A stretch of DNA of 32,000 nucleotides from Desulfocapsa sulfexigens DSM 10523 (GTDB lineage Bacteria; Desulfobacterota; Desulfobulbia; Desulfobulbales; Desulfocapsaceae), in NCBI RefSeq assembly GCF_000341395.1, contig NC_020304.1, forward strand, positions 3,240,001-3,272,000, given 5' to 3'. The notes under the pieces were generated by a model. It did not search any database and was not told the DNA's origin. It saw only the letters and a program-made list of their open reading frames with translations. The position numbers and the translations under genes were made by a program. Positions 20,371 to 32,000 of the stretch are shown here, one piece after another (position 1 is the first letter of the stretch; each line of letters starts with the position of its first letter).

Positions 20371-21573
20371 TCAGGCAGTTGCTGCCCTTCCAAGAGCATC
20401 GCACATCTTTTTCAACTGCTCATCGCTCATTTTCACAGATACCGGGTACACCAGTGTTCTTGACATAATATCCGCTGATTGAGGAAGTAAATTGGGGTCG
20501 TAAACTACGCGACGTTTACCGCCTGGTTCTGCAAAGGGCCATCCGGATGCGGTAATTGTTGATCCTTTCATAAGGTGTTCCCAGCTTGGATAAAAATGCC
20601 AGCTGTTTTCACTGAAATTAATTGCGCCAACCCCACTTTCTTTCAGGATAGCATTTATTCTCTGACACTGCTCACTGCTCTCCATGATAAATGCAAAAAA
20701 TGTCGCCGTATCCCCTTCTTCATCGACAAGACTTCTGAATTGTACTCCAGGAATAGCAGATGCTGCCTGGCGGAGTTTGGCCTTATGGTTCTTTTGAGCA
20801 GCAATCATGGAATCAAGTTTAGCCAACTGGGCAATCCCCATAGCACCCTGCAGTTCCATCATTCGATAGTTAAATCCTACAAACCTGCGCCCTTCCCCGC
20901 CACGTCCCCCTGGATTAACCACATGATCGTGACCATGATCATGGTATTCAGACATGGTTCGCCACATTTCTTCATCATTGGTAATGATCATTCCACCTTC
21001 TCCGGTGGTCATGGTTTTCACCGAATCAAATGAAAATGTCCCGCAGTTTCCAAAGGTACCGAGATGCTGACCTTTAATTGTGCCACCTGCCGCCTGGGCA
21101 GTATCCTCAAGCACCGGAATATTATGTTTGCTGGCAATTGCAACAATTTCTTCAATACGGGCCATTGCTCCAAGCATGTGCACCGGGATGATACAGCGAG
21201 TTTTGTCATTGATCTTTGTTTTCAGATCTTCGGGGTCCATATTTAAGGTTTCATCAATTTCAGTGAAAACCGGAATAGCACCAATATCAAGAATTGCCTC
21301 CCAGGTGGCTACAAAGGTGAATCCCTGGGTAATGACCTCATCTCCAGGGCCCACTCCAAGTGCAGCAAGCGCAACCTTTAATGCAGCCGTTCCAGAAGTC
21401 ACTGCCTGAGCAAAACCTGCACCGCAGTAGCTTGCGAAATTCTTCTCAAATTCTAGGACCTTATAAACATTCTTGCGCTGTTCACCAAACTCATATCTAA
21501 AAAGGACACCAGTGTCCAGAACGTCACTGATCTGCCTTTTTTCCTCATCTCCAAAGACTTCAAAACCGGGCAT
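20371..21573 (-). CDS. DegT/DnrJ/EryC1/StrS family PLP-dependent aminotransferase
   Basis: 400 aa. AQAVTSGTAALKVALAALGVGPGDEVI, TFSFDSVKTMTTGEGGMI (PLP lysine context) and FNYRMMELQGAMGIAQL are characteristic of the family. Substrate is unknown. Confidence 0.85.
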   Translation of the reverse strand: MPGFEVFGDEEKRQISDVLDTGVLFRYEFGEQRKNVYKVLEFEKNFASYCGAGFAQAVTSGTAALKVALAALGVGPGDEVITQGFTFVATWEAILDIGAIPVFTEIDETLNMDPEDLKTKINDKTRCIIPVHMLGAMARIEEIVAIASKHNIPVLEDTAQAAGGTIKGQHLGTFGNCGTFSFDSVKTMTTGEGGMIITNDEEMWRTMSEYHDHGHDHVVNPGGRGGEGRRFVGFNYRMMELQGAMGIAQLAKLDSMIAAQKNHKAKLRQAASAIPGVQFRSLVDEEGDTATFFAFIMESSEQCQRINAILKESGVGAINFSENSWHFYPSWEHLMKGSTITASGWPFAEPGGKRRVVYDPNLLPQSADIMSRTLVYPVSVKMSDEQLKKMCDALGRAATA

Positions 21574-21592
21574 GGGATAACTCCTTTGTCAA

Positions 21593-21955
21593 TTATTTGG
21601 TGAGCATTTCTTTGATTCTATTGTTTTTATCAAGCAATGCAATAACAGGATGATAGGTTTCAAGATCCTGTGGTGAGTAGAATCCAAAGGTTACAATAAT
21701 GATCAAATCGCCAACCATCCCTTTACGGGCAGCAGCACCATTCAGACCAATAACACCAGATCCGGCTTTCCCTTCAATAGCATAGGTGTCAAAACGCTCC
21801 CCATTATTTATATTATAGACCTTTACCCGCTCGAAGGGCACTATTCCTACAGCATCGAGAAGTTCACGGTCAATGGTAAGACTACCTTCATAATTAAGAT
21901 CTGCTTCAGTAATAGTGGCCTTGTGTAACTTGGCCCTGAGCATTTGACGCTCCAT
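21593..21955 (-). CDS. panD: aspartate 1-decarboxylase (pyruvoyl-dependent)
   Basis: MLRAKLHKATITEADLNYEGSLTID contains the self-processing Gly-Ser site. The downstream NGERFDTYAI...GLNGAAAR aligns with E. coli PanD. Confidence 0.92.
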   Translation of the reverse strand: MERQMLRAKLHKATITEADLNYEGSLTIDRELLDAVGIVPFERVKVYNINNGERFDTYAIEGKAGSGVIGLNGAAARKGMVGDLIIIVTFGFYSPQDLETYHPVIALLDKNNRIKEMLTK

Positions 21956-22005
21956 AGCAACTATCCTGTAAAGTGATGGTTTTCGGAAAACCTGTTTTTA
22001 ATGTT

Positions 22006-22866
22006 TTATGATTCCATTAATAGAGAATTATCTATTAATCGTATCCGCTTATTAATCTTTACCGCCATAACCAGCAAGGACTGTTCACTCAAGTGAGTGC
22101 AAACCTGTAGTGTCGTTTTATCAACTATTTCTATATAATCAATTTCGCATTCAGGATGTTCTGTTACTATCTGACAGGCTATATCCTTAAGGTCAGCAGG
22201 TGTTATTGTTTGCCCGCTGTTGTTTTTAATGGCATTTTTAACAGCAGTAATGCTCAAAGAAAGGGAAAGTGCCGCTGGGATTTCATCTTTTTGAAGGTAC
22301 GTGTTGCGCGAACTCATGGCCAGGCCATTTTTTTCGCGAACTATTGGATGACCAATAATATCTATCGGAAAATCGAGATCTGCAACCATCCGCCGTATCA
22401 CCGCCAGTTGTTGAAAATCTTTTTCCCCAAAAACGGCAAGGTGTGGCAGTGTCAGGTTGAAAAGTTTTGCTACAACGGTGGTTACTCCGTCAAAATGCCC
22501 AGGCCTGCTTGCTCCGCAAAGGGAAGATGTTAACCCACTGACAGAAACGGTAGTGGCAAAACCCTCCGGATACATACTGCCCTTGTCCGGGGCAAAAATA
22601 ATATCAACTCCTACTTCTTCAGCCAGTCTACAGTCTCTTTTTAGGTCATAGGGATAGTTATCCAGATCCTCACCTGGCCCAAACTGCATGGGATTTATAA
22701 AAAGGCTGACTATTACGCGGTCGACGGACTGCCTGGCTCTTCGCATAAGCGAAAGATGCCCTTCATGAAACCAACCCATGGTTGGTACAAGCCCGATCAG
22801 TAACCCCTGAGATCGATATTGCTGGGCAAGTATCTGGATCTCTTCAGGACTGGTTACTACCTTCAT
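22006..22866 (-). CDS. panC: pantoate--beta-alanine ligase
   Basis: 286 aa. LVPTMGWFHEGHLSLM (HIGH-like), FGEKDFQQL and MSSRN are PanC motifs. Confidence 0.93.
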   Translation of the reverse strand: MKVVTSPEEIQILAQQYRSQGLLIGLVPTMGWFHEGHLSLMRRARQSVDRVIVSLFINPMQFGPGEDLDNYPYDLKRDCRLAEEVGVDIIFAPDKGSMYPEGFATTVSVSGLTSSLCGASRPGHFDGVTTVVAKLFNLTLPHLAVFGEKDFQQLAVIRRMVADLDFPIDIIGHPIVREKNGLAMSSRNTYLQKDEIPAALSLSLSITAVKNAIKNNSGQTITPADLKDIACQIVTEHPECEIDYIEIVDKTTLQVCTHLSEQSLLVMAVKINKRIRLIDNSLLMES

Positions 22867-23558
22867 TCCTGAGCGCTGAGACGGGTAATCTTTTGCTGAA
22901 TCATTCTGGTGAGCTGAGAGTTCTGCTCCTCACCGAGAAAGGTCCCGAGATATTCCTCATAAACCGCCAGAGCTTCCTTGTTTTTTCCTTCAGCCTCGAG
23001 TACCCGGGCCATCCCCATGAACCCCTCATCCTTATAGCCATCAATTGCTTTCAGAGCCGAATAAGATGCCGAAGCCTGACTATACAATTTGTCTGCCTCT
23101 TCGGCCTGGGCTATTGCAAAACTTAGCAGCCCATACATTGGATTTGAGGTTGAAATGTCATCACGAACCTCGGAGTAATACTGTTTGGCTTTGGAATAGG
23201 CTTTATCCTTCATGGCCATATGACCAAGTTCTACACTTGCCCACAGAGCCGAGGGTGTTCCTGAATAATTATCAACAACATGTTCAAGAGCCTTAATCCT
23301 ATCTGCGCCTTCCGCATTCATGGATAGGGAAAGATTGCTTGCACTATCTTCAAGACGTCCAGTTCGGTAACTCTGATAAAGAGATCCAACAACCACGACA
23401 ATTACTATCAAAGTGCCGCTAATTTGCAGTATTCGTTTATTATTCCTAACAAATTTCACAAAACCTGGTGGAAGATTGAGTTGATCCAGCACACCGCTCG
23501 GTTCAACATAGGCATTTTCTGCCACATGATTCTGATCAAATGCACTTCTTTCACTCAT
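22863..23558 (-). CDS. membrane-anchored tetratricopeptide-repeat protein (YfgM-like topology)
   Basis: It has a single TM segment ILQISGTLIVIVVVVGSLY followed by TPR-like helices (AYSKAKQYYSEV, YSQASASYSALKAI, EALAVYEEYL). The start was moved to ATG 23558, preceded by AGGAG. Its stop overlaps the panC start by 4 nt. Confidence 0.7.
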   Translation of the reverse strand: MSERSAFDQNHVAENAYVEPSGVLDQLNLPPGFVKFVRNNKRILQISGTLIVIVVVVGSLYQSYRTGRLEDSASNLSLSMNAEGADRIKALEHVVDNYSGTPSALWASVELGHMAMKDKAYSKAKQYYSEVRDDISTSNPMYGLLSFAIAQAEEADKLYSQASASYSALKAIDGYKDEGFMGMARVLEAEGKNKEALAVYEEYLGTFLGEEQNSQLTRMIQQKITRLSAQE

Positions 23559-23748
23559 CCTGCACTCCTGGTTTTTTACTTTACCTTTATGAGAAAAACC
23601 TATACCTCTATCTGAGATAGTGGCAGCTGTCTCCATTTTGTTTTCAAAAATAAATAGTGTAATTTACCCTATCCTGATTGCCATGTCTATTCTCAAACCG
23701 CATATATTACGGATTTTTAAAGTTCTATTCACATACAGGCTCTTTTAG

Positions 23749-25107
23749 ATGATCAATCAAGAAGCAGACCAGATGTATTCCGTCACTTCACTCACCAGAA
23801 AACTTAAAAATCTGGTTGAAATGAAGTTTCGTTTTGTTAAGGTGGAAGGGGAAATTTCGAACCTTAAACGACCATTTTCAGGGCATTTGTACTTCACCTT
23901 AAAGGATGATGGTGCCCAGCTCAAAGGTGTACTTTTTAAGGGACAATCCCGCTATCTTGAAAAACCTCTTGAAGATGGACAACAGGTCATATGCCATGGC
24001 CGCATCTCAGTTTACGAACCACGAGGTGACTACCAGCTCGTGGTAGACAGTGTTGATTTTCAAGGGAGTGGAATGCTGCAGCTCCAATTTGAAAAACTCA
24101 AAAAACAGCTGCAGGGTGAAGGACTTTTTGCTCAGGAGAGGAAACGAAGTCTTCCCAGATTCCCAAGGGAGATTGTGTTGCTCACTTCCCCTAGTGGTGC
24201 TGCCGTCCATGATTTTCTAAAAATATGGCGCAAGCGGCATTTTCCTACCACTGTGAGTATTTACCCCGTGCCTGTTCAGGGAAAAGAGGCAGCAGCAGCG
24301 ATTGTCAAAGCCCTGGACATACTCAATGTTGTCCGTCCACACACAGATATCGTGGTGCTTTGTCGTGGTGGAGGATCCCTCGAGGATCTCTGGCCCTTTA
24401 ATGAGGAAATTCTGGCAAGGGCAATTGCACAATCCACCATCCCGGTTGTATCAGCTATAGGACATGAGGTGGATTTCACAATAAGTGACTTCTGTGCCGA
24501 TCTGAGAGCGCCAACACCTACGGCTGCTGCGGAAATGATAATCCCTGACGGTATTGCACTACAGGAAACAGTTGGACGTATGCAACGGATACTCACCAGA
24601 ACTGTTTTTGGAATATTGGAAGACTATCAGTACCGGATCAATCAAAACCGTAGATTGCTTGGAGACATGGATTTTCTCTTCACCAATTATTCTCTTCGTC
24701 TTGATCACGCATCTCTTAAGCTTGTTACCCTGATAAAAAAAGTAATCAGTAACAGGAGTGTTATCTGTGACGAATTTTACGCAAAACTTCATCACAATTC
24801 ACCGGTGGCAAAGGTACAACTTCAGGAACAACATCTTCATTTTGCTGCAGCAAAACTCTCCTATCTGTTCCGGACTTTAGTTGCGGACAAAGAGGCAGCG
24901 TTAGGCCGGCAGGCATCATTGCTTGATGCGGTCAGTCCACTGGCAACGATGTCGAGAGGATATTCCATCACAAATAAAATTGATACAAAATCTGGAAAAA
25001 AAACACTTATCAGAAATAGTGGACAGCTTAAAATTGACGACAGACTGGAAATTCGGTTTCACAGAGGAAAAGTAGAGTGCGGAGTGACCCATGTAACTGA
25101 TGAATAA
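23749..25107 (+). CDS. xseA: exodeoxyribonuclease VII large subunit
   Basis: VEGEISNLKRPFSGHLYFTLKDDGAQLKGVLF, YEPRGDYQLVV, RGGGSLEDLWPFNEE and GHEVDFTISDFCADLRAPTPTAAAE align with E. coli XseA. ATG 23773 is an alternative start. Confidence 0.9.
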   Translation: MINQEADQMYSVTSLTRKLKNLVEMKFRFVKVEGEISNLKRPFSGHLYFTLKDDGAQLKGVLFKGQSRYLEKPLEDGQQVICHGRISVYEPRGDYQLVVDSVDFQGSGMLQLQFEKLKKQLQGEGLFAQERKRSLPRFPREIVLLTSPSGAAVHDFLKIWRKRHFPTTVSIYPVPVQGKEAAAAIVKALDILNVVRPHTDIVVLCRGGGSLEDLWPFNEEILARAIAQSTIPVVSAIGHEVDFTISDFCADLRAPTPTAAAEMIIPDGIALQETVGRMQRILTRTVFGILEDYQYRINQNRRLLGDMDFLFTNYSLRLDHASLKLVTLIKKVISNRSVICDEFYAKLHHNSPVAKVQLQEQHLHFAAAKLSYLFRTLVADKEAALGRQASLLDAVSPLATMSRGYSITNKIDTKSGKKTLIRNSGQLKIDDRLEIRFHRGKVECGVTHVTDE

Positions 25108-25226
25108 ATCGTAGTTGTTCCGACTCGATCTGACAGTTTAAGAGATGAGACGTGATTAAACCTGACACTCAGTAGGCACCTTTTTACAGCGTAGCCACTT
25201 TCACAGTGATATTGCCGGTGAACATA

Positions 25227-26615
25227 TTAAAAATCAAGTGGGCTCTTTGCTTCCTTTTTCGTCGTACTCTTCACCGTATGAGTGTAAATCATGGTTGTCC
25301 TTACATCCGAATGTCCCATCAGTTCCTGTATTGTTCGGATATCATAATTGGCCTGCAGAAGATGGCTGGCAAAGGAATGACGAAACGTGTGTGAAGTAAT
25401 TCTTTTGGGTATTTTTGCCTTTTTCACAGCTCTTCTCAGGGCCTTTTGCAATGATGTCTCATGGATATGATAGCGCCGGTTTTCACCATTTTTGAGGATG
25501 TGTGTTAATTCTTTGGCCGGAAAAAACCACTGCCAGATAAATTCCCTCGGAGCATTCTTATATTTTTTCTCAAGTCTGTCGGGCAGAAAGACGCCATCAT
25601 AGCCTACTTTAAGATCTGCATCATGAACACTGCCAACAAAAGTCAACTGTTCTTTGAGCCTCCCTTTCAGTTTATCCGGAATAGGCACAGTGCGATCCTT
25701 TTTACCTTTCCCGTCATGTATAGTCAATATTCCCATATCAAAATTAAAATTGTGGACCCGAAAAGAAATACATTCAGAGATTCGCAGTCCGCATCCATAC
25801 ATGAGCTCGATCATTAATTTGTAAGGATTACTCATATAAGAAAGTACTATATCGATTTCTTCCCGGGATAAAACAACAGGGATATACGGCTTGTGTTTAG
25901 CCCGAACCACACCGTCAATTTTCCCAAAGTCGGACTTGAAGACATTTCGAAACAAATAAAGCAAAGCATTGAATGCTAAATTTTGACTCGATGCAGAAAC
26001 TTTCTTTTCTGTCGCCATAAACGATAAGAACGCTTTAACATCTTCCACCTCAACGAATTTGGGATCTTTGCTTTTTACAAAAGTCTGGAATTGCCTTGTA
26101 TACCCAACATAAGATTTCAATGTCCTTAGTGAGTAATGTCTCATCCTGATCGAGCTTTCGAGCTCCGAGTATACCTGCCGCCAGTCTACTCCCTTGTGTT
26201 TTTCAGCACTTTTTTCCGTTTCAGGGAGTACCTCTTTCATTTTTCTGGTAGCGATAGCAGTCTGTTTTACGCGGTTATCTTTGGCAACCTGAGCCTCGAT
26301 ATCATAAAAATTATGACTCTTTTCTGGTGGTTTCTTTTGTTGCCCTATTACTTCTTCTGAATTTTTCATCTTCCATAGCAAATGGATGGCGTCTTCTGCT
26401 TGCTTCAACATGAACGGTTTTTGATTTTTACTTTTCAGCTTAATCAAAAAAGCAGGCAAAGAGTCTTTTTCGCTCCATTTTAAAGAATATTTCGTGCAAA
26501 AATCGAGATAATATCGTAACCATTTCAGGTAGAAAGATTGGAAGCGTTGTTCCACACCCTGATCTTTGAGAAATTTTGAGTATTGGGCTGAGAATTCTTT
26601 GGGTAGCTTGATCAT
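25227..26615 (-). CDS. intI: integron integrase (tyrosine recombinase) with ~135-aa N-terminal extension
   Basis: It aligns along its length with IntI1. RHYSLRT, LMYGCGLRISE and HDGKGKKDR match. The IntI-specific insertion FLPDRLEKKYKNAPREFIWQWFFPA...RRYHIHETSLQKALRRAV matches IntI1 [23 protein letters not shown]...RRHHMYDQTFQRAFKRAV. The C-terminal HTFRHSFASHLLQANYDIRTIQELMGHSDVRTTMIYTH carries the catalytic Tyr. Confidence 0.92.
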   Translation of the reverse strand: MIKLPKEFSAQYSKFLKDQGVEQRFQSFYLKWLRYYLDFCTKYSLKWSEKDSLPAFLIKLKSKNQKPFMLKQAEDAIHLLWKMKNSEEVIGQQKKPPEKSHNFYDIEAQVAKDNRVKQTAIATRKMKEVLPETEKSAEKHKGVDWRQVYSELESSIRMRHYSLRTLKSYVGYTRQFQTFVKSKDPKFVEVEDVKAFLSFMATEKKVSASSQNLAFNALLYLFRNVFKSDFGKIDGVVRAKHKPYIPVVLSREEIDIVLSYMSNPYKLMIELMYGCGLRISECISFRVHNFNFDMGILTIHDGKGKKDRTVPIPDKLKGRLKEQLTFVGSVHDADLKVGYDGVFLPDRLEKKYKNAPREFIWQWFFPAKELTHILKNGENRRYHIHETSLQKALRRAVKKAKIPKRITSHTFRHSFASHLLQANYDIRTIQELMGHSDVRTTMIYTHTVKSTTKKEAKSPLDF

Positions 26616-26641
26616 AAATCGACTTAGGGTGTTAACTGGAA

Positions 26642-26764
26642 TCTAGATAACATTCACTGTGACTGGTTAACCAGAAGAAAATAGCCTATCATGGACCACT
26701 TCAGATTGTCAATGGAGATGGCGACCCGGAGTTATCTAGAAAACTAGACAATAACTTGTTGGGC
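26642..26764 (+). other. attI region with recombination core GTTGGGC (26758-26764) and candidate cassette promoter
   Basis: GTTGGGC is the exact complement of the inverse core GCCCAAC of the first attC, placing the crossover between G26758 and T26759. TAAC/GTTA-containing elements lie at 26642-26651, 26731-26740 and 26752-26755. A candidate outward promoter is TGGTTA (26664-26669), 17 nt, TATCAT (26687-26692); this is weak and unverified. Confidence 0.55.
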
Positions 26765-26773
26765 AACAAAAAA

Positions 26774-27118
26774 ATGAACAGACTACTTGCCTTAACCCTT
26801 ATACTTGCCACAATAACATTAACAAGTGGCTGCAGCACGATACTAGAGCGGGTTACCTACTCAGAAGAGAATCGAGGACAACTCAATTATTATCCGGCTA
26901 CACAATTTGACATTTTCACAATTAAAAGTGGAGGCGGACTCTATTGCAGTCCTGGTCCGGGAACATTGATTGTCGTCCCTCTTTCAATTATCGATTTGCC
27001 TATCTCATTAGTCACAGACACAATTATGCTTCCTGCCGACATAGCAAGGAAAAACAAAATAGATAAACAAAAACAAAACGAAGCAACCCACAAAGAGCAA
27101 GGCTCGGTGCCTAAATAA
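26774..27118 (+). CDS. cassette 1: YceK/YidQ-like small lipoprotein (DUF1375-like)
   Basis: MNRLLALTLILATITLTSGC has a lipobox. NYYPATQFDI and IIDLPISLVTDTIMLP resemble E. coli YceK (QYYPGVQWDV and ILDLPFSLVFDTLLLP). The start was moved to ATG 26774. Confidence 0.7.
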   Translation: MNRLLALTLILATITLTSGCSTILERVTYSEENRGQLNYYPATQFDIFTIKSGGGLYCSPGPGTLIVVPLSIIDLPISLVTDTIMLPADIARKNKIDKQKQNEATHKEQGSVPK

Positions 27119-27154
27119 ACAAAAACTACCTCAATACGTAGAGTTAAAAAAATT

Positions 27155-27278
27155 GCCCAACAATACGCTCAAGCACGACGCGCAAACTTGCGCTTTGCTA
27201 AATCGGCTTCGGCCATCTCAACACAACCCGAACTTACTTTAACCCAAGCTAGGCGCGCGTCTTAGCTTTGCGTTATAC
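27155..27278 (+). repeat. attC site 1 (124 bp, subtype A)
   Basis: R'' is GCCCAAC at 27155-27161 and R' is GTTATAC at 27272-27278. The arms GCTCAAGCACGACGCGC and GGCGCGCGTCTTAGC pair, with bulged bases on the 5' arm. The AAC-AATAC-GCTCAAGC layout resembles aadA-type attC (AAC-AATTC-GTTCAAGC). Confidence 0.88.
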
Positions 27279-27288
27279 CAATCAAACC

Positions 27289-28017
27289 ATGAAAGCACCT
27301 TGTACCCTACTCCTTATAACCTTCCTTTTTTCCCTGAATGGTTGCGCAGTTGTGACACATATTGGGCCGTATGAAGGAAAAATTGTAGATGCAGAAACTG
27401 GTAAGCCTATTGAGGGAGCTTTGATTTATTCTTACATATCCACAGAATCTCCTAGTGTAGCAGGAACGGTGTCACACTATGCTGGTTACACACAAACTTT
27501 TTCAGACCAAAATGGCTGTTTTAAAATAAGCAAGTTACTTTTCGCGTTTAGGCCACTAGCAATATGGGGTGATGAACATTTTATAATATCAAAACCTGAA
27601 TACATATCATCAGCATATACTTCACATGGTAACAACATTGAAGAATCTAAAGAGAATATTATTAGGTTAAAAAAATTTAAAAAAGAACCATATTTGAAAT
27701 CAAAAATTTATGAACCATATATACCTTACAGTATAACATATGAAGAACAAAAATACTTGGGAGTGATAAATGATATAAACAGAATGTATAAACTTCTTTC
27801 TCCATCCAAATTAACCATAGAAGAATATTACAATGTATTAAGTCAAACTAAAAACAAGGGCAATGTCGAATCAAAAAAATATTCCCATTATGAACTTGAA
27901 CTGTGGAAAGACTTTGGGGTAGCGTTACAAGTATATGAGCAAGAGTGGAAGAAAAGATCATTTACTCAAGAAAAACCAGGAGAGACTTTAGGAATTGAGT
28001 CACAAATCCTTAAATAA
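27289..28017 (+). CDS. cassette 2: orphan lipoprotein, N-terminal carboxypeptidase-regulatory-like beta domain, novel Lys/Tyr-rich C-terminal half
   Basis: MKAPCTLLLITFLFSLNGC has a lipobox. GKIVDAETGKPIEGALIY...DQNGCFKI resembles the CarboxypepD_reg fold motif. I do not recognise the remaining ~150 aa. The start was moved to ATG 27289, because the ORF-track TTG start lies inside attC1. Confidence 0.7.
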   Translation: MKAPCTLLLITFLFSLNGCAVVTHIGPYEGKIVDAETGKPIEGALIYSYISTESPSVAGTVSHYAGYTQTFSDQNGCFKISKLLFAFRPLAIWGDEHFIISKPEYISSAYTSHGNNIEESKENIIRLKKFKKEPYLKSKIYEPYIPYSITYEEQKYLGVINDINRMYKLLSPSKLTIEEYYNVLSQTKNKGNVESKKYSHYELELWKDFGVALQVYEQEWKKRSFTQEKPGETLGIESQILK

Positions 28018-28026
28018 ACAACAATG

Positions 28027-28146
28027 GTATAACAATTCGCTCAAGCACGACGCGCGAGCACGCCAGTTTTATCGGCTTCGGCCAACTCACTTCAACCCGA
28101 ACTTACTCAACCTCTGCTAGGCGCGCGTCTTAGCTTTGCGTTAGGG
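28027..28146 (+). repeat. attC site 2 (120 bp, subtype B)
   Basis: R'' GTATAAC (28027-28033) is the complement of the attC1 R' GTTATAC. R' is GTTAGGG at 28140-28146. It shares the arms GCTCAAGCACGACGCGC and GGCGCGCGTCTTAGCTTTGC with the other sites. Confidence 0.88.
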
Positions 28147-28152
28147 CCAAAA

Positions 28153-28620
28153 ATGAATGAGCCTGATATTCAAATTGAAATAGCATCTAAAAATGATGCT
28201 AATGAAATTTTGGAAATCCAAAAATCAGCCTTTCTAGGCCAAGCAGCCATTTATAACAACTATGAACTGCCACCGCTTACACAAAGCCTGGAGTCAATTG
28301 AAAATGAATTCGGTGAAAAAACCTTTTTGAAAGTTGTAATCAATGGGCAAATCATTGGGGCAGTCAGATTTAAGCAAAAAGAAGGCATCGTAACTATCGA
28401 TCGAATCGTAGTTAAACCAGAGTATCAAAATAAAGGCATTGGAACATTATTGCTTAAACAAATTGAAAAAATAGCTACAAATCCAAAGTCTTATCAATTG
28501 TTCACGGGCAACAAAAGCTCCAGAAATATTCATCTATACGAAAAATCAGGTTATAAAGTTATAAAAAAAGAAACTACTAACCAGGGTATCGAACTACTAA
28601 AAATGGAAAAATTGCCCTAA
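28153..28620 (+). CDS. cassette 3: GNAT family N-acetyltransferase
   Basis: 155 aa. The acetyl-CoA motif A is IVVKPEYQNKGIGTLLLKQIE, followed by HLYEKSGYKV. The ATG lies 12 nt inside the cassette boundary. The stop TAA (28618-28620) lies inside R'' of attC3. Confidence 0.88.
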   Translation: MNEPDIQIEIASKNDANEILEIQKSAFLGQAAIYNNYELPPLTQSLESIENEFGEKTFLKVVINGQIIGAVRFKQKEGIVTIDRIVVKPEYQNKGIGTLLLKQIEKIATNPKSYQLFTGNKSSRNIHLYEKSGYKVIKKETTNQGIELLKMEKLP

Positions 28621-28739
28621 CAATACGCTCAAGCACGACGCGCAAACTTGCGCTTCGCTAAATCGGCTTCGGCCATCTCAATTACAACTCTAACTTAACT
28701 TAACCCCGGCTAGGCGCGCGTCTTAGCTTTGCGTTATAT
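28615..28739 (+). repeat. attC site 3 (125 bp, subtype A)
   Basis: R'' CCCTAAC (28615-28621) is the complement of the attC2 R' GTTAGGG. R' is GTTATAT at 28733-28739. The 5' half is nearly identical to attC1. Confidence 0.88.
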
Positions 28740-28781
28740 GGCAAAACAATCACGAACTACACTTCATCTCTAATCTGCAAC

Positions 28782-28810
28782 TTGACAGAAAAGCTCATCA
28801 CAATTATAAT
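28782..28810 (+). promoter_or_regulatory. consensus sigma70 promoter of the vapBC cassette with repeated operator-like motif
   Basis: TTGACA (28782-28787), exactly 17 nt, TATAAT (28805-28810). The 9-mer ACAATTATA occurs twice (ACAATTATA-ATT-ACAATTATA) across and after the -10. The GAGGTG RBS lies 6 nt before ATG 28850. Confidence 0.65.
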
Positions 28811-28849
28811 TACAATTATATTATGAACAAATCTCAGTGAGGTGCGATT

Positions 28850-29083
28850 ATGGGTCAAGTAACTATCTATCTCGACAATGAGACAGAAAACAAATTGAAA
28901 AAAGCTGCCAAATCTAGTCACCTTTCCGTTAGCAAATGGGTTGCGGGGGTTATAGAAGAAAAAGTAACAACTGAATGGCCTCAGGATGTCGTCAAGTTGG
29001 CAGGCAGCTGGAAAGACGATTTTCCAACCATCCATGAGATAAGATCGACCACCGGCCATGACTCCCCAAGGGAGGAACTCTAA
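28850..29083 (+). CDS. vapB: cassette 4: type II antitoxin, ribbon-helix-helix (VapB-like)
   Basis: 77 aa. MGQVTIYLDNETENKLKKAAKSSHLSVSKWVAGVIEE is an RHH fold signature. The stop lies 2 nt before the PIN toxin start. Confidence 0.8.
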   Translation: MGQVTIYLDNETENKLKKAAKSSHLSVSKWVAGVIEEKVTTEWPQDVVKLAGSWKDDFPTIHEIRSTTGHDSPREEL

Positions 29084-29085
29084 AA

Positions 29086-29478
29086 TTGTATCTCCTTGAC
29101 ACAAACACACTTATTTATTTCTTCAAAGGTCTGGGTAATGTGGCAGAGAACCTACTGTCTAAATCCCCAAAAGATATTTCCATACCTTCAATTGCTCTTT
29201 ATGAACTTGAGGTGGGGATAGCAAAATCAAACAGCCCGAAAAAAAGAAAGAAACAACTAGAATCGCTAATCTCACGCATCACCGTATTACCCTTTGCTTC
29301 AAAAGAGGCCGAAGTTGCCGCAGTGATCAGAGCAGAACTTGAAAATATAGGCACACCAATAGGCCCCTATGACACTTTCATCGCAGGAATTGCCTTGAGT
29401 TCAAACGCTACACTAGTCACACACAACACAAAAGAATTCAATAGAGTTGAAGGCTTGAGCCTTGAAGACTGGTTCTAA
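29086..29478 (+). CDS. vapC: cassette 4: type II toxin VapC (PIN domain ribonuclease)
   Basis: (M)YLLDTNTLIYFFKG, YELEVG, YDTFIAGIAL and THNTKEF carry the PIN acidic residues. It uses a TTG start and is coupled to vapB. Confidence 0.88.
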   Translation: MYLLDTNTLIYFFKGLGNVAENLLSKSPKDISIPSIALYELEVGIAKSNSPKKRKKQLESLISRITVLPFASKEAEVAAVIRAELENIGTPIGPYDTFIAGIALSSNATLVTHNTKEFNRVEGLSLEDWF

Positions 29479-29488
29479 AAAAACTGCC

Positions 29489-29605
29489 ATATAATTCGCT
29501 CAAGCACGACGCGCGAGCACGCTAGTTTTATCAGCTTCGGCCAACTTAATACAACACGAACCTACTCAACCTCTGCCAGGCGCGCGTCTTAGCTTTGCGC
29601 TAATA
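29489..29605 (+). repeat. attC site 4 (117 bp, subtype B), degenerate at both R boxes
   Basis: The internal arms are identical to the other attCs. R'' reads ATATAAT-TCGC, lacking the AAC triplet; GCCATATAACAATTCGC is expected from attC3 R' GTTATATGGC, so 3 bp are missing. R' reads GCTAATA (29599-29605) instead of GTTRRRY. Confidence 0.75.
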
Positions 29606-29696
29606 TTGCCATGTCGAAGTTCTTAATATCCTACCAATACCTCTATTTTACCTTAGTCCTGACAGGGTAGAACCCCCTAGTTTTCCGGAATTGTTT

Positions 29697-29742
29697 AGAA
29701 ATGGAGCAACCACAAAGAAGAGCTTACCAAAGAATATCACGA
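29697..29742 (+). repeat. direct repeat copy A flanking the parDE module
   Basis: agaaatggagcaaccacaaagaagagcttaccaaagaatatcacga matches 30495-30540 at 41 of 46 positions. It overlaps the last two codons of parE. Confidence 0.7.
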
Positions 29743-30054
29743 ATCAATGAGGGCTTCATAATGCCGCCCTCCATAAAAAACATTTAGAATCTGTACCGTC
29801 GAATCTGCCTCATCTACAAGGAATGCTGCAACAGCTTTGTTATCAAGAGGATAAATTCTTAACCCGTCCATCAGATCACTTCGCAATTGACCTCTTATTG
29901 GAAAAGTTTCTAGCTCCTGACACTTGGACTTGAGCCTTTCCATATAGTTCCAAGCCCTTTCGGGGAAACCACTTTGCTCAACTATATAAAGATAAATATC
30001 TTCTAGGTCCTTGATCGCATCCGGCATAAAATAGACACGATATTTATCCATCAA
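29737..30054 (-). CDS. parE: type II toxin, RelE/ParE family
   Basis: 105 aa. YRVYFMPDAIKDLEDIYLYI...FPERAWNYMERLKSKCQELETFPIRG...ILNVFYGGRHYE is the ParE pattern. It overlaps parD by 11 nt. Confidence 0.85.
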   Translation of the reverse strand: MMDKYRVYFMPDAIKDLEDIYLYIVEQSGFPERAWNYMERLKSKCQELETFPIRGQLRSDLMDGLRIYPLDNKAVAAFLVDEADSTVQILNVFYGGRHYEALIDS

Positions 30055-30331
30055 TTTCCCCTTTCAGTTTTCGTTTGTGTAACTCCTCAATTCTGCTAAA
30101 TGCTTCTTCAATGGGTACTGGTTCACCATTATTCTTGGATTTCTCCAAACGGTTACGTATGAGGGCCAGACGTATTTCATGCTCTTCTTCTTTTTTTTGC
30201 CAAAGCCTCATCGCTTCTCTTATCAACTCGCTGGTAGAGCCATAGGAGCCAGAGCTCACTTTTTGCTTGATTGAGGAAAGCATATCCCGGGGTAGAGTAA
30301 TTGTAATTCGTTCCGCTTTTTCTTGTTGCAT
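30044..30331 (-). CDS. parD: type II antitoxin ParD (RHH, COG3609-like)
   Basis: ITITLPRDMLSSIKQKVSSGSYGSTSELIREAMRLWQKKEEE is the ParD signature. An AAGGAGG RBS lies 8 nt upstream of the ATG. Confidence 0.85.
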   Translation of the reverse strand: MQQEKAERITITLPRDMLSSIKQKVSSGSYGSTSELIREAMRLWQKKEEEHEIRLALIRNRLEKSKNNGEPVPIEEAFSRIEELHKRKLKGEIDG

Positions 30332-30393
30332 TGTGTTGACCTCCTTGTGAGTATGATTTAATCATACCACTATTAATTACATGGGGCAACCGC

Positions 30394-30424
30394 AATGCAA
30401 CTCAATATTTTGAGCTGTTGCATT
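30394..30424 (-). promoter_or_regulatory. imperfect palindrome upstream of parD, candidate operator/promoter
   Basis: AATGCAACTCAA-tatt-TTGAGcTGTTGCATT lies 63-93 nt upstream of the parD start. On the minus strand, TTGCAT, 17 nt, ATTAAT could serve as -35 and -10. Confidence 0.4.
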
Positions 30425-30494
30425 TAAAATGTGCTTAACTAAATGGTGACTTTAACCACAGTAAACAGACTTGACTATTCAATTGAAATTGATC

Positions 30495-30540
30495 AGAAAT
30501 GGAGCAACTACAAAGAAGAGCTTACCGAAGAACACCTCGA
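30495..30540 (+). repeat. direct repeat copy B flanking the parDE module
   Basis: agaaatggagcaactacaaagaagagcttaccgaagaacacctcga. Weaker similarity continues on both sides: gaaattgatc versus ggaattgttt upstream, and tcaatcgggtttcacaa versus tcaatgagggcttcataa downstream. Confidence 0.7.
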
Positions 30541-30711
30541 TATTTCAATCGGGTTTCACAAGTTGCGTAATACTTAATACTATTGGGTCGGACCAAGTTA
30601 CCCAACTGATATAGCAATAGAAATACCTCAAAAACACCCGTTTTAATCCCTTATGGCCTCCTTCCCCCCAAAAAAAAGGACCCTCTAAGGAAATACAGAG
30701 GGCTGGTATCC

Positions 30712-31245
30712 ATGCCAAGAGCAAACTAACATTATATACCCGGCTGCGTCTGGCACATCACCCACAGATGTCTATGGACCCTGTGTACCTGACTATATTG
30801 CCACTTCCAACCATATCCACCTGCTGGTGGTGGACACCAGGGAAGATGTAATTCCCAACAGCATGCTGCTCATTGCAGGCCGGACTGTACAGGAGTATAA
30901 CCAGCGAAAGAGTCGAAAAGGCACCTTCTGGGAGGATCGATACCATGCCAGTGCGGTGGAGACGGATGAACATCTGGCAAAGTGTCTGGTCTAGATCGAC
31001 CTCAACATGGTGCGGGCAGGAGGGGTGAAACACCCGTTGGAATATACGTTGAGCGGCTTCAATGAAATCCAGAGGCCGAAACAGCGGTATACCGTGATCG
31101 ATCGCCTTTGATCGATCTTTTTTCCGTTGGCAGTCAAGAACATTTTCGTTAGAAACATAAACAGTGGGTTGAGACAGAACTGGGGGCAGATAAACAACAA
31201 CGGAAGGCTTTTTGGAGTGAATCAATCGCTGTATGCGTATTCCAG
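30712..31245 (+). pseudogene. decayed IS200/IS605-type (RayT-like) Y1 HUH transposase
   Basis: Frame 1 reads MPRAN*HYIPGCVWHITHRC. Frame 2 reads DYIATSNHIHLLVVD...GTFWEDRYHASAVETDEHLAKCLV*IDLNMVRAGGVKHP...SGFNEI. A third frame reads KAFWSESIAV. There are stops at 30727 and 30992, at least two frameshifts, and about 35 aa missing between HRC and the HUH motif. Confidence 0.7.
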
Positions 31246-31251
31246 TGAATC

Positions 31252-31327
31252 CGGCCACCCAGTCCACTTGATTCCGGCCAGTAATTCCACGGCAAAGCGG
31301 CCACCCAGTCCAGAGGATTCCGGCCAG
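31252..31327. repeat. two 30-bp direct repeats in the IS21 terminus
   Basis: CGGCCACCCAGTCCA-ctt-GATTCCGGCCAG at 31252-31281 and CGGCCACCCAGTCCA-gag-GATTCCGGCCAG at 31298-31327 match at 27 of 30 positions. Confidence 0.7.
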
Positions 31328-31379
31328 GGTGTCGGAGCGTAGCGACGCGAATATTTCCTTCTTACTCTGTGTGTTGCTC

Positions 31380-32000
31380 TCACGTCAAGCGTGCTTTCTT
31401 TTTTCTCATAGATTCTCCTTTCAGTTTGATTTTGTGAGCGGCATGTACCAGACGGTCAAGAATGGCGTCGGCTAAAGTCGGATCTCCGATCCGCTCATGC
31501 CAGTGCTCTACCGGTAATTGACTGGTTACCAAGGTAGATTTGAGGCCGTGTCTGTCTTCCAGTATTTCTAGTAAATCATGGCGTTGCTCCTGGTTGAGTG
31601 TGGCCAGTCCATAGTCATCAAGTACCAATAGATCTGTTTTTGAATAGACAGTCAGTAACTTCAGATAACGGCCATCCCCCTTGGCAAGAGCCAGATCTTC
31701 AAAGAGTTTACTCAGACGGAGATAGAGAGCACTATAGCCTTCTCTGCATGCCTTTTGGGCCAAGGCACAGGCAAGATAGGATTTGCCGACTCCAGTGGGG
31801 CCGGTAATAAGCAGATTGGTATGTTCCTTTATCCAGTTGCAGTCAGCCAGCCTGGTTACCAGTGACCTATCCAGACCACGCGGATGACGGAAGTCTACAT
31901 CCTCGATTGAGCCATCCTGCCGCAGCTTTGCCTTTCTGAGTCTGGTCTGAAGTTTTCTGGTTTCCCTGACCGCCTGCTCGCGGTCAAGTAACAGACCGAG
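31380..32000 (-). CDS. istB: IS21-family helper ATPase IstB (5' end outside the window)
   Basis: The frame is open from the window edge: LGLLLDREQAVRETRKLQTRLRKAKL...LLITGPTGVGKSYLACALAQKACREGYSALY...LLVLDDYG...LVTSQLPVEHWHE...ADAILDRLVH. It has Walker A, Walker B and the IstB C-terminal motifs. The ORF-track start at 31763 is an internal Met. Confidence 0.9.
   Translation of the reverse strand, partial: LGLLLDREQAVRETRKLQTRLRKAKLRQDGSIEDVDFRHPRGLDRSLVTRLADCNWIKEHTNLLITGPTGVGKSYLACALAQKACREGYSALYLRLSKLFEDLALAKGDGRYLKLLTVYSKTDLLVLDDYGLATLNQEQRHDLLEILEDRHGLKSTLVTSQLPVEHWHERIGDPTLADAILDRLVHAAHKIKLKGESMRKKKARLT

Follow-up and report, generated by a model that had tools for sequence, protein, structure and literature searches.

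Evidence for a complete four-cassette chromosomal integron in Desulfocapsa sulfexigens and for a second core-binding domain in its integrase

The window analysed here is a stretch of 32,000 nucleotides of the chromosome (3.99 Mb) of Desulfocapsa sulfexigens DSM 10523 (contig NC_020304.1, forward-strand positions 3,240,001 to 3,272,000), and all positions below are counted from its first letter. It very probably holds a complete chromosomal integron, composed of an integrase gene (intI), the attI site and four cassettes, each bounded by an attC site. An earlier note, made from the letters of the window, had described intI on the minus strand, downstream of xseA and divergent from a plus-strand array, and all of these elements lie where that note placed them. 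That intI encodes an integron integrase was already known from the GenBank annotation; a literature search pairing the name of the organism with "integron" found no paper treating this integron. The locus is an ordinary integron, with a textbook architecture and mundane cassettes. Its single unusual feature is the integrase, at whose N-terminus the DNA-binding domain of the protein occurs a second time.

The integrase gene and the part of it that has the canonical integrase architecture are as follows.

25227-26615, minus strand: intI, 462 amino acids, GenBank AGF79466.1 ("integron integrase")
25227-26180, minus strand: canonical part of IntI, amino acids 146-462, with the core-binding (SAM-like) domain and the catalytic domain that contains the IntI-specific insertion

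Profile and structure searches identify the canonical part. IntI matches the NCBIfam model TIGR02249 ("integron integrase") with 362.7 bits over amino acids 150-461 and model positions 3-313 of 315, the curated cut-off being 265 bits, and Pfam PF13495 and PF00589 match this part as well. Against the Protein Data Bank (PDB), phmmer found VchIntIA, the integrase of the Vibrio cholerae superintegron (2A3V), with an E-value of 7.7e-72. The alignment is not interrupted through the IntI-specific insertion, and residues 341-385, which hold it, align to 2A3V without gaps. 2A3V is also the best structural match in a Foldseek search with the AlphaFold model of IntI (39% identity, E 5e-22). The earlier note had tied its assignment to an IntI-specific domain recognizable by profile, and this domain is present. 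The R-K-H-R-H/W-Y catalytic set, aligned to VchIntIA, is intact (R278, K303/K306, H409, R412, H435 and Y444); among 39 homologues every one of these residues is invariant or almost so, R278, H409, R412 and Y444 being strictly invariant and H435 nearly. Compared with the relative L001, whose IntI is 80% identical, the ratio of nonsynonymous to synonymous substitution rates (dN/dS) is 0.06 in the core-binding domain and 0.09 in the catalytic domain. These ratios, together with that of the N-terminal domain described below, indicate strong purifying selection in the folded domains of IntI (0.06-0.12).

Two features lie upstream of intI.

26731-26764, plus strand: attI, GTTATCTAG-AAAA-CTAGACAATAAC-TT-G/TTGGGC, with the crossover between G26758 and T26759
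26663-26674: perfect 12-nucleotide palindrome CTGGTTAACCAG, about 50 nucleotides upstream of the intI start and identical in L001

The position of attI next to intI was confirmed by the finding that homology between relatives ends at the crossover point. L001 is homologous to window positions 25189-26760; the homology stops exactly at the GTT of 26758-26760 and a different cassette follows. Furthermore, GAATAACTTGTT is invariant in the window, in L001 and in Hydrosulfovibrio (L008), whose IntI is 49% identical, and the sequences diverge directly after it. A third copy of CTAGATAAC was found at 26643-26651, about 90 nucleotides further upstream of the attI pair. The attI repeats (GTTATCTAG, CTAGACAATAAC and CTAGATAAC) are plausible candidates for IntI-binding elements, and the palindrome CTGGTTAACCAG is a candidate operator.

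Four attC sites follow, each scored here with R1, a covariance model built from these four sites themselves.

27155-27278, plus strand: attC1, 124 nucleotides, subtype A (134.9 bits)
28027-28146, plus strand: attC2, 120 nucleotides, subtype B (142.7 bits)
28615-28739, plus strand: attC3, 125 nucleotides, subtype A (131.5 bits)
29486/29489-29605, plus strand: attC4, 120/117 nucleotides, subtype B, decayed (133.4 bits)

As the earlier note had seen, every open reading frame (ORF) or ORF pair of the array is followed by a homologous repeat of 117-125 bp. The four repeats have a mean column identity of 83-87% and form two alternating subtypes (1/3 and 2/4); such identity over 120-nucleotide units is far beyond chance. 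Each site consists of R'' (7 nucleotides), a 5-nucleotide spacer, L'' (GCTCAAGCACGACGCGC), about 60 nucleotides, L' (GCGCGCGTCTTAGC), the spacer TTTGC and R', and within the center of about 60 nucleotides the bottom strand has a GGCCGAAGCC hairpin that is conserved. L'' and L' pair over 3+3+3+5 bp, and the 5' arm (R''-L'', top strand) has three bulges of one base each. In characterised attC sites, the extrahelical bases are on the R''-L'' arm, as in the attC structure in complex with VchIntIA (2A3V). The repeats therefore have the R and L boxes, the extrahelical bases and a length within the range (about 57-141 nucleotides) of attC sites, the exception being the AAC/GTT of attC4. The spacer, the paired arms and the 5'-arm bulges of the earlier note were all confirmed, but the strict consensus RYYYAAC/GTTRRRY that it gave fits only some sites: R'' GCCCAAC fits RYYYAAC, GTATAAC and CCCTAAC do not, and the R' boxes are GTTATAC, GTTAGGG and GTTATAT. 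In attC4, R' is GCTAATA instead of GTTxxxx, and R'' and the spacer read ATATAA--- with a 3-nucleotide deletion. With this damage attC4 has lost both R-box halves, and therefore cassette 4, which encodes VapBC, is probably immobilised at the end of the array.

Within each cassette, the R'' box of the attC complements the opening bases. The reverse complement is exact in GCCCAAC/GTTGGGC, GTATAAC/GTTATAC and CCCTAAC/GTTAGGG; cassette 1, for example, opens with TTGGGC after the crossover, of which attC1 R'' is the reverse complement. For attC4, in which R'' is truncated by the 3-nucleotide deletion, the pair is ATATAA- and GTTATAT (the expected R'' is ATATAAC). This complementarity would be expected if the units were once circles closed at G/TT that entered the array by site-specific recombination, and, as read from the sequence, it is the strongest evidence that they are cassettes.

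The same attC family is found in other genomes. R1 detected 53 sites in attC-bearing loci of other genomes, and exactly four in the window, all of them in the array. In the 53-member alignment, which was itself fitted to R1, 89% of the cells are paired compared with 26-45% after a shift of the partner by 1-3 columns, and 15 of the 25 pairs show compensatory changes; none of 500 shuffles reached the observed values. A surrogate model, based on another attC family, present in L003 and L012, ranked attC2 first in the window (E 0.0019), attC4 third (0.24) and attC1 fourth (1.1), all with exact ends, and missed attC3. Recovery by a model of another family weakly supports the identity of the sites as attC. 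Among GTDB genomes, 32 stretches contain a 20-nucleotide piece of the attC 3' arm; most are metagenome-assembled genomes (MAGs) of Desulfobulbales and Thermodesulfobacteriota, and Hydrosulfovibrio ferrireducens is represented in addition, but D. sulfexigens itself is not among these stretches. The conservation extends beyond the arms to the whole 120-nucleotide attC across genera whose IntIs are 37-49% identical, and in other genomes the same repeats adjoin IntI genes (L008, L033 and L026).

Several observations concern these arrays more generally. The second attC family, of about 123 nucleotides, is found on GTDB MAG contigs (L003 and L012) in the same arrays as the family of the window and has the same R/L-box geometry. 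It shows many compensatory changes and a branched center; RNAalifold gave 38 pairs, 10 of them with compensatory changes. This coherent family was used for the surrogate model instead of the heterogeneous attCs of L001, L002 and L005, whose MAFFT alignment was too poor to model. attC sites of the Desulfobulbales type also occur on short contigs (L007, L012, L016, L025, L026, L028 and L003) in MAGs labelled Chloroflexota, Bacteroidales, Kiritimatiellae, Flavobacteriales, Planctomycetota and Sulfurovum. These contigs could be mis-binned, repeat-rich array fragments or could reflect transfer of cassettes across phyla.

The four cassettes encode small accessory proteins.

26759-27272, plus strand: cassette 1, 514 nucleotides; ORF 26774-27118, YceK/YidQ (DUF1375) lipoprotein (PF07119, E 8e-21; AGF79467.1)
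27273-28140, plus strand: cassette 2, 868 nucleotides, GC content 0.33; ORF 27289-28017, lipoprotein-like protein of 242 amino acids (UWK_02938, AGF79468.1)
28141-28733, plus strand: cassette 3, 593 nucleotides, GC content 0.33; ORF 28153-28620, GNAT N-acetyltransferase (PF13673, E 9e-19; PF00583, E 2.5e-15)
28734-29599, plus strand: cassette 4, 866 nucleotides; vapB-like antitoxin gene 28850-29083 and vapC PIN-domain toxin gene 29086-29478

The cassette 2 protein has only a sub-threshold, N-terminal CarboxypepD_reg-like match (PF13715, E 0.0035), and the GNAT protein of cassette 3 scores far under the cut-offs of AAC(6') aminoglycoside-resistance models. VapC is well recognized (NF047863, E 4.6e-39; PF01850), and its antitoxin has only weak DUF6364/DUF6290 matches. 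Start codons of cassettes 1-3 lie 15, 16 and 12 nucleotides inside the cassette boundaries and lack a clear Shine-Dalgarno sequence, in agreement with the earlier note, which had given 12-16 nucleotides; in cassette 3, AGGG from the core site lies 6 nucleotides upstream of the ATG, and its stop codon falls within R'' of attC3. Cassette 4 has a promoter of its own at 28782-28810 (TTGACA-17-TATAAT), which matches the sigma-70 consensus at 12 of 12 positions. The earlier note had described the cassettes as more AT-rich than the attC arms and the core genes. This is true of cassettes 2 and 3 (GC 0.33; attCs 0.50-0.54, core genes 0.44), but not of cassette 1 (0.41) or vapBC (0.41-0.45). It had also suggested phage-defence functions in the array. 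PADLOC (E <= 0.001) found no match to known or candidate defence families among the seven proteins of the cassettes and of the parDE pair that lies beyond them, and therefore this suggestion is without support. The earlier note had further taken the array for the best place in the window to look for new biology; the cassettes show nothing obviously new, and the duplicated core-binding domain of the integrase clade is the one feature that merits the attention of specialists.

Cassette content differs between near-identical chromosomes. The metagenome contig L002 (JGI 3300009451 contig Ga0127402_1001422) is 99.2% identical to window positions 21335-26475, which include panD, panC, a tetratricopeptide repeat gene, xseA and most of intI. 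Its cassettes are all different and encode an Acetyltransf_3 GNAT protein, a YkuD transpeptidase and an alpha/beta hydrolase; attCs of other families follow at least two of them. In one L002 attC, R'' is GCATAAC, the complement of the GTTATGC that opens its cassette, and none of the L002 attCs belongs to the attC family of the window. Thus the array is not invariant between strains, a comparison that the earlier note had proposed, and there is real cassette turnover in near-identical backgrounds. Homology to L002 ends inside the 5' end of intI at about codon 47, and therefore L002 has lost the first helices of IntI and attI is gone. At L002 positions 2652-2921, 9 nucleotides past the end of homology, there is an element of about 270 bp that resembles a miniature inverted-repeat transposable element (MITE), with 20-nucleotide terminal inverted repeats (AAGGGGTCGGGCCGCCGCAA / TTGAGGCGGCCCGACCCCTT); no copy of it was found in the window. 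This element may be linked to the deletion that removed the beginning of intI, attI and a portion of the array from L002.

The flanking core gene on the other side of intI is as follows.

23749-25107, plus strand: xseA, exodeoxyribonuclease VII large subunit (TIGR00237, E 4.2e-127), identical to AGF79465.1

xseA is convergent with intI, 119 nucleotides apart. Adjacency to xseA was found only in the same-species contig. In relatives with 65-80% identical IntI, the integron is at other chromosomal loci, where intI has different neighbours on its far side, and therefore the xseA location is specific to D. sulfexigens. BLASTN of the four cassettes and the post-array region against 34 loci gave no match, so no shared cassettes were found. 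The earlier note had compared the array with sedentary integrons of the Vibrio cholerae repeat (VCR) type. The similar attCs of about 120 nucleotides (83-87%) agree with this, but there are four cassettes rather than tens (with R1 the window has four attCs, the last ending at 29605), the location is not conserved, and the attC family recurs in many genomes of Desulfobulbales. The comparison holds only in part, and this is not a large sedentary array.

Several results weigh against a complete and working integron. Folded with DNA parameters, the bottom strands of the attCs give -16.3 to -22.6 kcal/mol and the top strands -14.4 to -18.9; the bottom strand is better than the top strand, which speaks for attC sites, but only attC1 and attC2 are clearly better than shuffled controls (z-scores of -2.05, -2.75, -0.10 and -1.65 for attC1-4). 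In the minimum free energy folds the preferred register is shifted slightly from the canonical one with three bulges. A scan of positions 24000-32000 against Rfam at E <= 1 gave no match; Rfam has no curated attC family. The terminal attC4 is decayed. The best match to a cassette promoter, at 26566-26595 inside the 5' end of intI, has 9 of 12 consensus positions and is no better than background (17 promoter-like sites compared with 13.4 expected). The turnover has a sole same-species comparator, L002, a single metagenome contig with a 5'-truncated intI, and a chimeric assembly is possible because, beside the MITE-like element, other sequence takes the place of attI and of the 5' end of intI. 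Finally, current recombination activity, like the route of cassette expression and the role of the extra domain, is something that we infer, and no recombination product or circle was observed.

These points raise the question of whether the locus is a relic, that is, an integron by descent that no longer recombines and whose cassettes are now fixed genes. The loss of both R-box halves in attC4, the shortness of the array and the lack of an identified cassette promoter would fit a relic, and L002, in which the intI 5' end and attI were deleted or replaced next to the MITE-like element, demonstrates that the locus does decay. However, intI of the window is intact, keeps its catalytic residues and is under strong purifying selection, the R boxes of attC1-3 have perfect AAC/GTT and are complementary to their own cassette starts, and cassette content is wholly different between genomes whose flanks share 99% identity. 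We therefore consider a relic unlikely.

If the integron is complete and functional, its recombination and expression would follow the established integron pathway, on which the following proposal is modelled. The bottom strand of each attC would fold into an imperfect hairpin in which an unpaired spacer separates the R box from the L box; three extrahelical bases would lie in the L box, and the stem at the apex is conserved. IntI would recombine the folded attC with attI for insertion, or with another attC for excision. Cassettes 1-3, which have neither their own promoter nor a clear ribosome-binding site, would rely on read-through from near attI and the intI 5' end, and VapBC of cassette 4 would be expressed from its own sigma-70 promoter.

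The N-terminal extension of IntI, about 145 amino acids long, consists of two further parts.

26346-26615, minus strand: extra N-terminal domain, amino acids 1-90, four-helix (AlphaFold2 fold, Foldseek and profiles)
26181-26345, minus strand: linker, amino acids 91-145, low complexity and predicted to be disordered (predicted local distance difference test (pLDDT) score 26-37)

No Pfam model reaches its threshold within the first 148 residues, and the curated models cover residues 150-461 only. More than 100 homologues of about 460 amino acids align over 100% of the IntI query. In the alignment of IntI homologues W32, Y36, D38 and C40 do not vary and Met1 hardly does, and dN/dS compared with L001 is 0.12 for amino acids 1-90. 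In the linker, dN/dS is 0.44, and its length and sequence are so variable among homologues that it cannot be aligned. Conservation from Met1 and the dN/dS of 0.12 indicate that the extension is translated and under constraint. The RefSeq protein WP_208598476.1 (394 amino acids) begins at residue 69, within the fourth helix of the extra domain (26409-26615 are codons 1-69). The same two lines of evidence favour the 462-amino-acid GenBank call, and the RefSeq start is probably wrong. With residues 1-148 as a query, 1328 proteins were found at E <= 0.001 among 1.84 billion cluster representatives, and each representative carrying the extension stands for a sequence cluster at 50% identity. In nearly all of the 150 matches listed of the 1328, the match begins within the first 40 residues. 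One protein, P0179 (6837 amino acids, with 11 stretches matching the query), was set aside as a compositional match, being a low-complexity, E/K-rich repeat protein.

The structure of the extension resembles that of the core-binding domain. In the AlphaFold model, amino acids 6-90 form four helices with the order and lengths of those in the canonical core-binding domain (146-225), and residues 90-139 between the two are disordered. When the extra domain was folded alone with AlphaFold2, pLDDT was 88 and the predicted template modelling (TM) score was 0.78. A Foldseek search of the PDB with this domain returned N-terminal core-binding domains of tyrosine recombinases (Cre, Xer, XerA and VchIntIA) as all of its top 23 matches. 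The TM score was 0.72 with archaeal Xer (4A8E; root-mean-square deviation (rmsd) 2.3 Å), similar for XerA, and 0.68 with VchIntIA (rmsd 2.4 Å), the rmsd range for Xer, XerA and VchIntIA being 2.1-2.5 Å. Foldseek probabilities were about 1.0 and E-values only 0.06 to about 2, which are weak because the domain has only 82 residues. Profiles point in the same direction. Pfam Phage_int_SAM_4 matches residues 15-81 weakly (E 0.012), hhalign aligns the extra domain with the protein's own core-binding domain over 69 collinear columns, again weakly (E 0.0066), and a profile of the extra domain has a sole match in the PDB, 2A3V, at amino acids 10-80. BLASTP of the N-terminal 96 amino acids against the own core-binding domain gave no alignment; the kinship is visible through profiles and structure only. 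Furthermore, homologues of about 600 amino acids have a further, well-preserved core-binding copy inserted, and Pfam finds three separate SAM_4 stretches in them. We are thus highly confident that the extension arose by tandem duplication of the core-binding domain and has since diverged; a linker predicted to be disordered connects it with the canonical part. IntI belongs to a large clade of Desulfobacterota integrases with this extra diverged copy. Four integron integrases of about 590-617 amino acids with three tandem SAM_4 domains were recorded (P0019, P0093, P0108 and P0113), one on a contig of 7.3 Mb and one on a contig of 1.4 Mb.

What the extra domain does is a matter of conjecture. 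Integron integrases have been classed as "arm-less" simple recombinases (Smyshlyaev et al., bioRxiv 10.1101/542381). It is possible, though we hold it only tentatively, that the extra domain is an accessory DNA-binding module built by tandem duplication and that the long-IntI clade is an exception among these arm-less integrases. In that case the domain would bind accessory sites, for which attI repeats of the CTAGATAAC type and the GGCCGAAGCC hairpin apex of the 120-nucleotide attC family are candidates, and it would act like the arm domain of lambda Int in setting directionality or site choice; we conjecture this accessory-site function. Nemergut et al. 2008 (PMC2426708) described a deltaproteobacterial IntI clade about 120 amino acids longer than others, attributed the extra length to "a single gene fusion event" and suggested that its members may be functional. 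In the literature searched, with partial access, we found no later account of the long-IntI extension.

Compared with known systems, the closest is the Vibrio cholerae superintegron. Both are chromosomal, have intI divergent from the array, homogeneous attCs of about 120 nucleotides in one family and toxin-antitoxin cassettes with their own promoters, and the integrases are 39% identical with the same fold, including the IntI-specific insertion. In contrast, there are four cassettes here compared with more than 100, the attC family is common to Desulfobulbales genera whose IntIs are 37-49% identical and is absent from the same-species contig L002, so that it is not species-specific, and VchIntIA lacks the extra N-terminal domain. 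IntI of D. sulfexigens (462 amino acids) and the more than 100 homologues of about 460 amino acids (Desulfobulbaceae, Desulfopila and Desulfobacteraceae) fit the description of "clade 15" of deltaproteobacterial intI (Nemergut et al. 2008, PMC2426708), whose members have an additional length of about 120 amino acids. Beyond that description, the fused part is identified here as a tandem core-binding copy with a disordered linker, with three-copy variants. The class 1 mobile integron (IntI1, attI1 and the cassette promoter Pc) is alike in intI, the G/TT crossover of attI, promoterless cassettes and attC. Unlike class 1, the D. sulfexigens integron is not on a transposon or plasmid, has no identified Pc, lacks a 3' conserved segment and resistance cassettes, and has long, homogeneous attCs where those of class 1 are heterogeneous (57-141 nucleotides). 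Lambda-type integrases also have an additional N-terminal domain of DNA-binding type and a flexible linker. This is an architectural analogy only: their arm-binding domain has a three-stranded-sheet fold, whereas that of IntI has the four-helix SAM-like core-binding fold, and its arm-type sites are conjectural.

A further toxin-antitoxin pair lies beyond the array.

29737-30331, minus strand: parDE toxin-antitoxin pair (PF05016, E 5.7e-11; PF03693/TIGR02606)

parDE is not demonstrably a cassette because no attC follows it; no fifth attC after 29605 was found with R1, and an inverted-repeat scan gave short hairpins only. Among these, the hairpin at about 30385-30420 was rejected as an attC, being too short and upstream of parD; it is likelier to be a parDE operator. 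Toxin-antitoxin modules, often inverted, are frequent in integron arrays. A longer array, of which parDE would be a fifth, inverted cassette, its attC lost perhaps through the adjacent insertion sequence (IS) remnants of IS200-like and IS21 type, would be consistent with this general pattern. A ParE/ribbon-helix-helix pair occurs in the array next to the relative P0009. Here, parDE starts 132 nucleotides after attC4, a 54-nucleotide direct repeat (87%) flanks it and transposase remnants follow. Neither the family model nor the inverted-repeat scan finds an attC-like site after parDE, however, and the R'' to be expected, TATTAAC, has no better counterpart than TATTAAT at about 30371, which lacks a hairpin partner. 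We regard a longer array as improbable.

The region further downstream contains repeats and fragments. The two copies of the 54-nucleotide direct repeat, at 29689-29742 and 30487-30540, both resemble fragments of one small coding sequence (KWSN(H/Y)KEELT). At about 30700-31110 (plus strand) there is an N-terminally truncated Y1 transposase pseudogene, of the IS200-like type or the type of REP-associated tyrosine transposases (RAYT; REP, repetitive extragenic palindrome), with an in-frame stop (Pfam Y1_Tnp, E 4.7e-5) and the motifs SNHIHLLV ... FWEDRYH. Directly 3' of it, three copies of a 30-nucleotide GC-rich unit, 23 nucleotides apart, occupy 31252-31327; these may be REP-like and tied to the Y1 remnant. 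A C-terminal fragment of the IS21 helper ATPase IstB lies at 31380-31763 (minus strand; PF01695, E 3e-41, profile positions 112-236 of 238), so that IS debris borders the integron array. The attC repeats are themselves long, GC-rich, palindromic, present in many genomes and without an Rfam match, as generic REP/MITE-type repeats beside a Xer-like recombinase would be, but that there is no integron at all has next to no likelihood and is already contradicted: the recombinase passes the IntI-specific model TIGR02249, the 5' ends of the repeats are complementary to the unit starts as cassette recombination predicts, and the same repeats adjoin IntI genes elsewhere (L008, L033 and L026) and are confined to the array in the window.

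The four-cassette integron gives a clear example, in an anaerobic bacterium that disproportionates sulfur, of the footprints that cassettes leave and of their turnover between strains. Of wider importance could be the integrase, which represents at least 1328 clusters at 50% identity, with one or two extra core-binding copies maintained under purifying selection. Should the extra domain contact DNA, this would show that accessory contacts between protein and DNA can take part in integron recombination, and the domain would offer a handle on how IntI chooses between attI and folded attC substrates.

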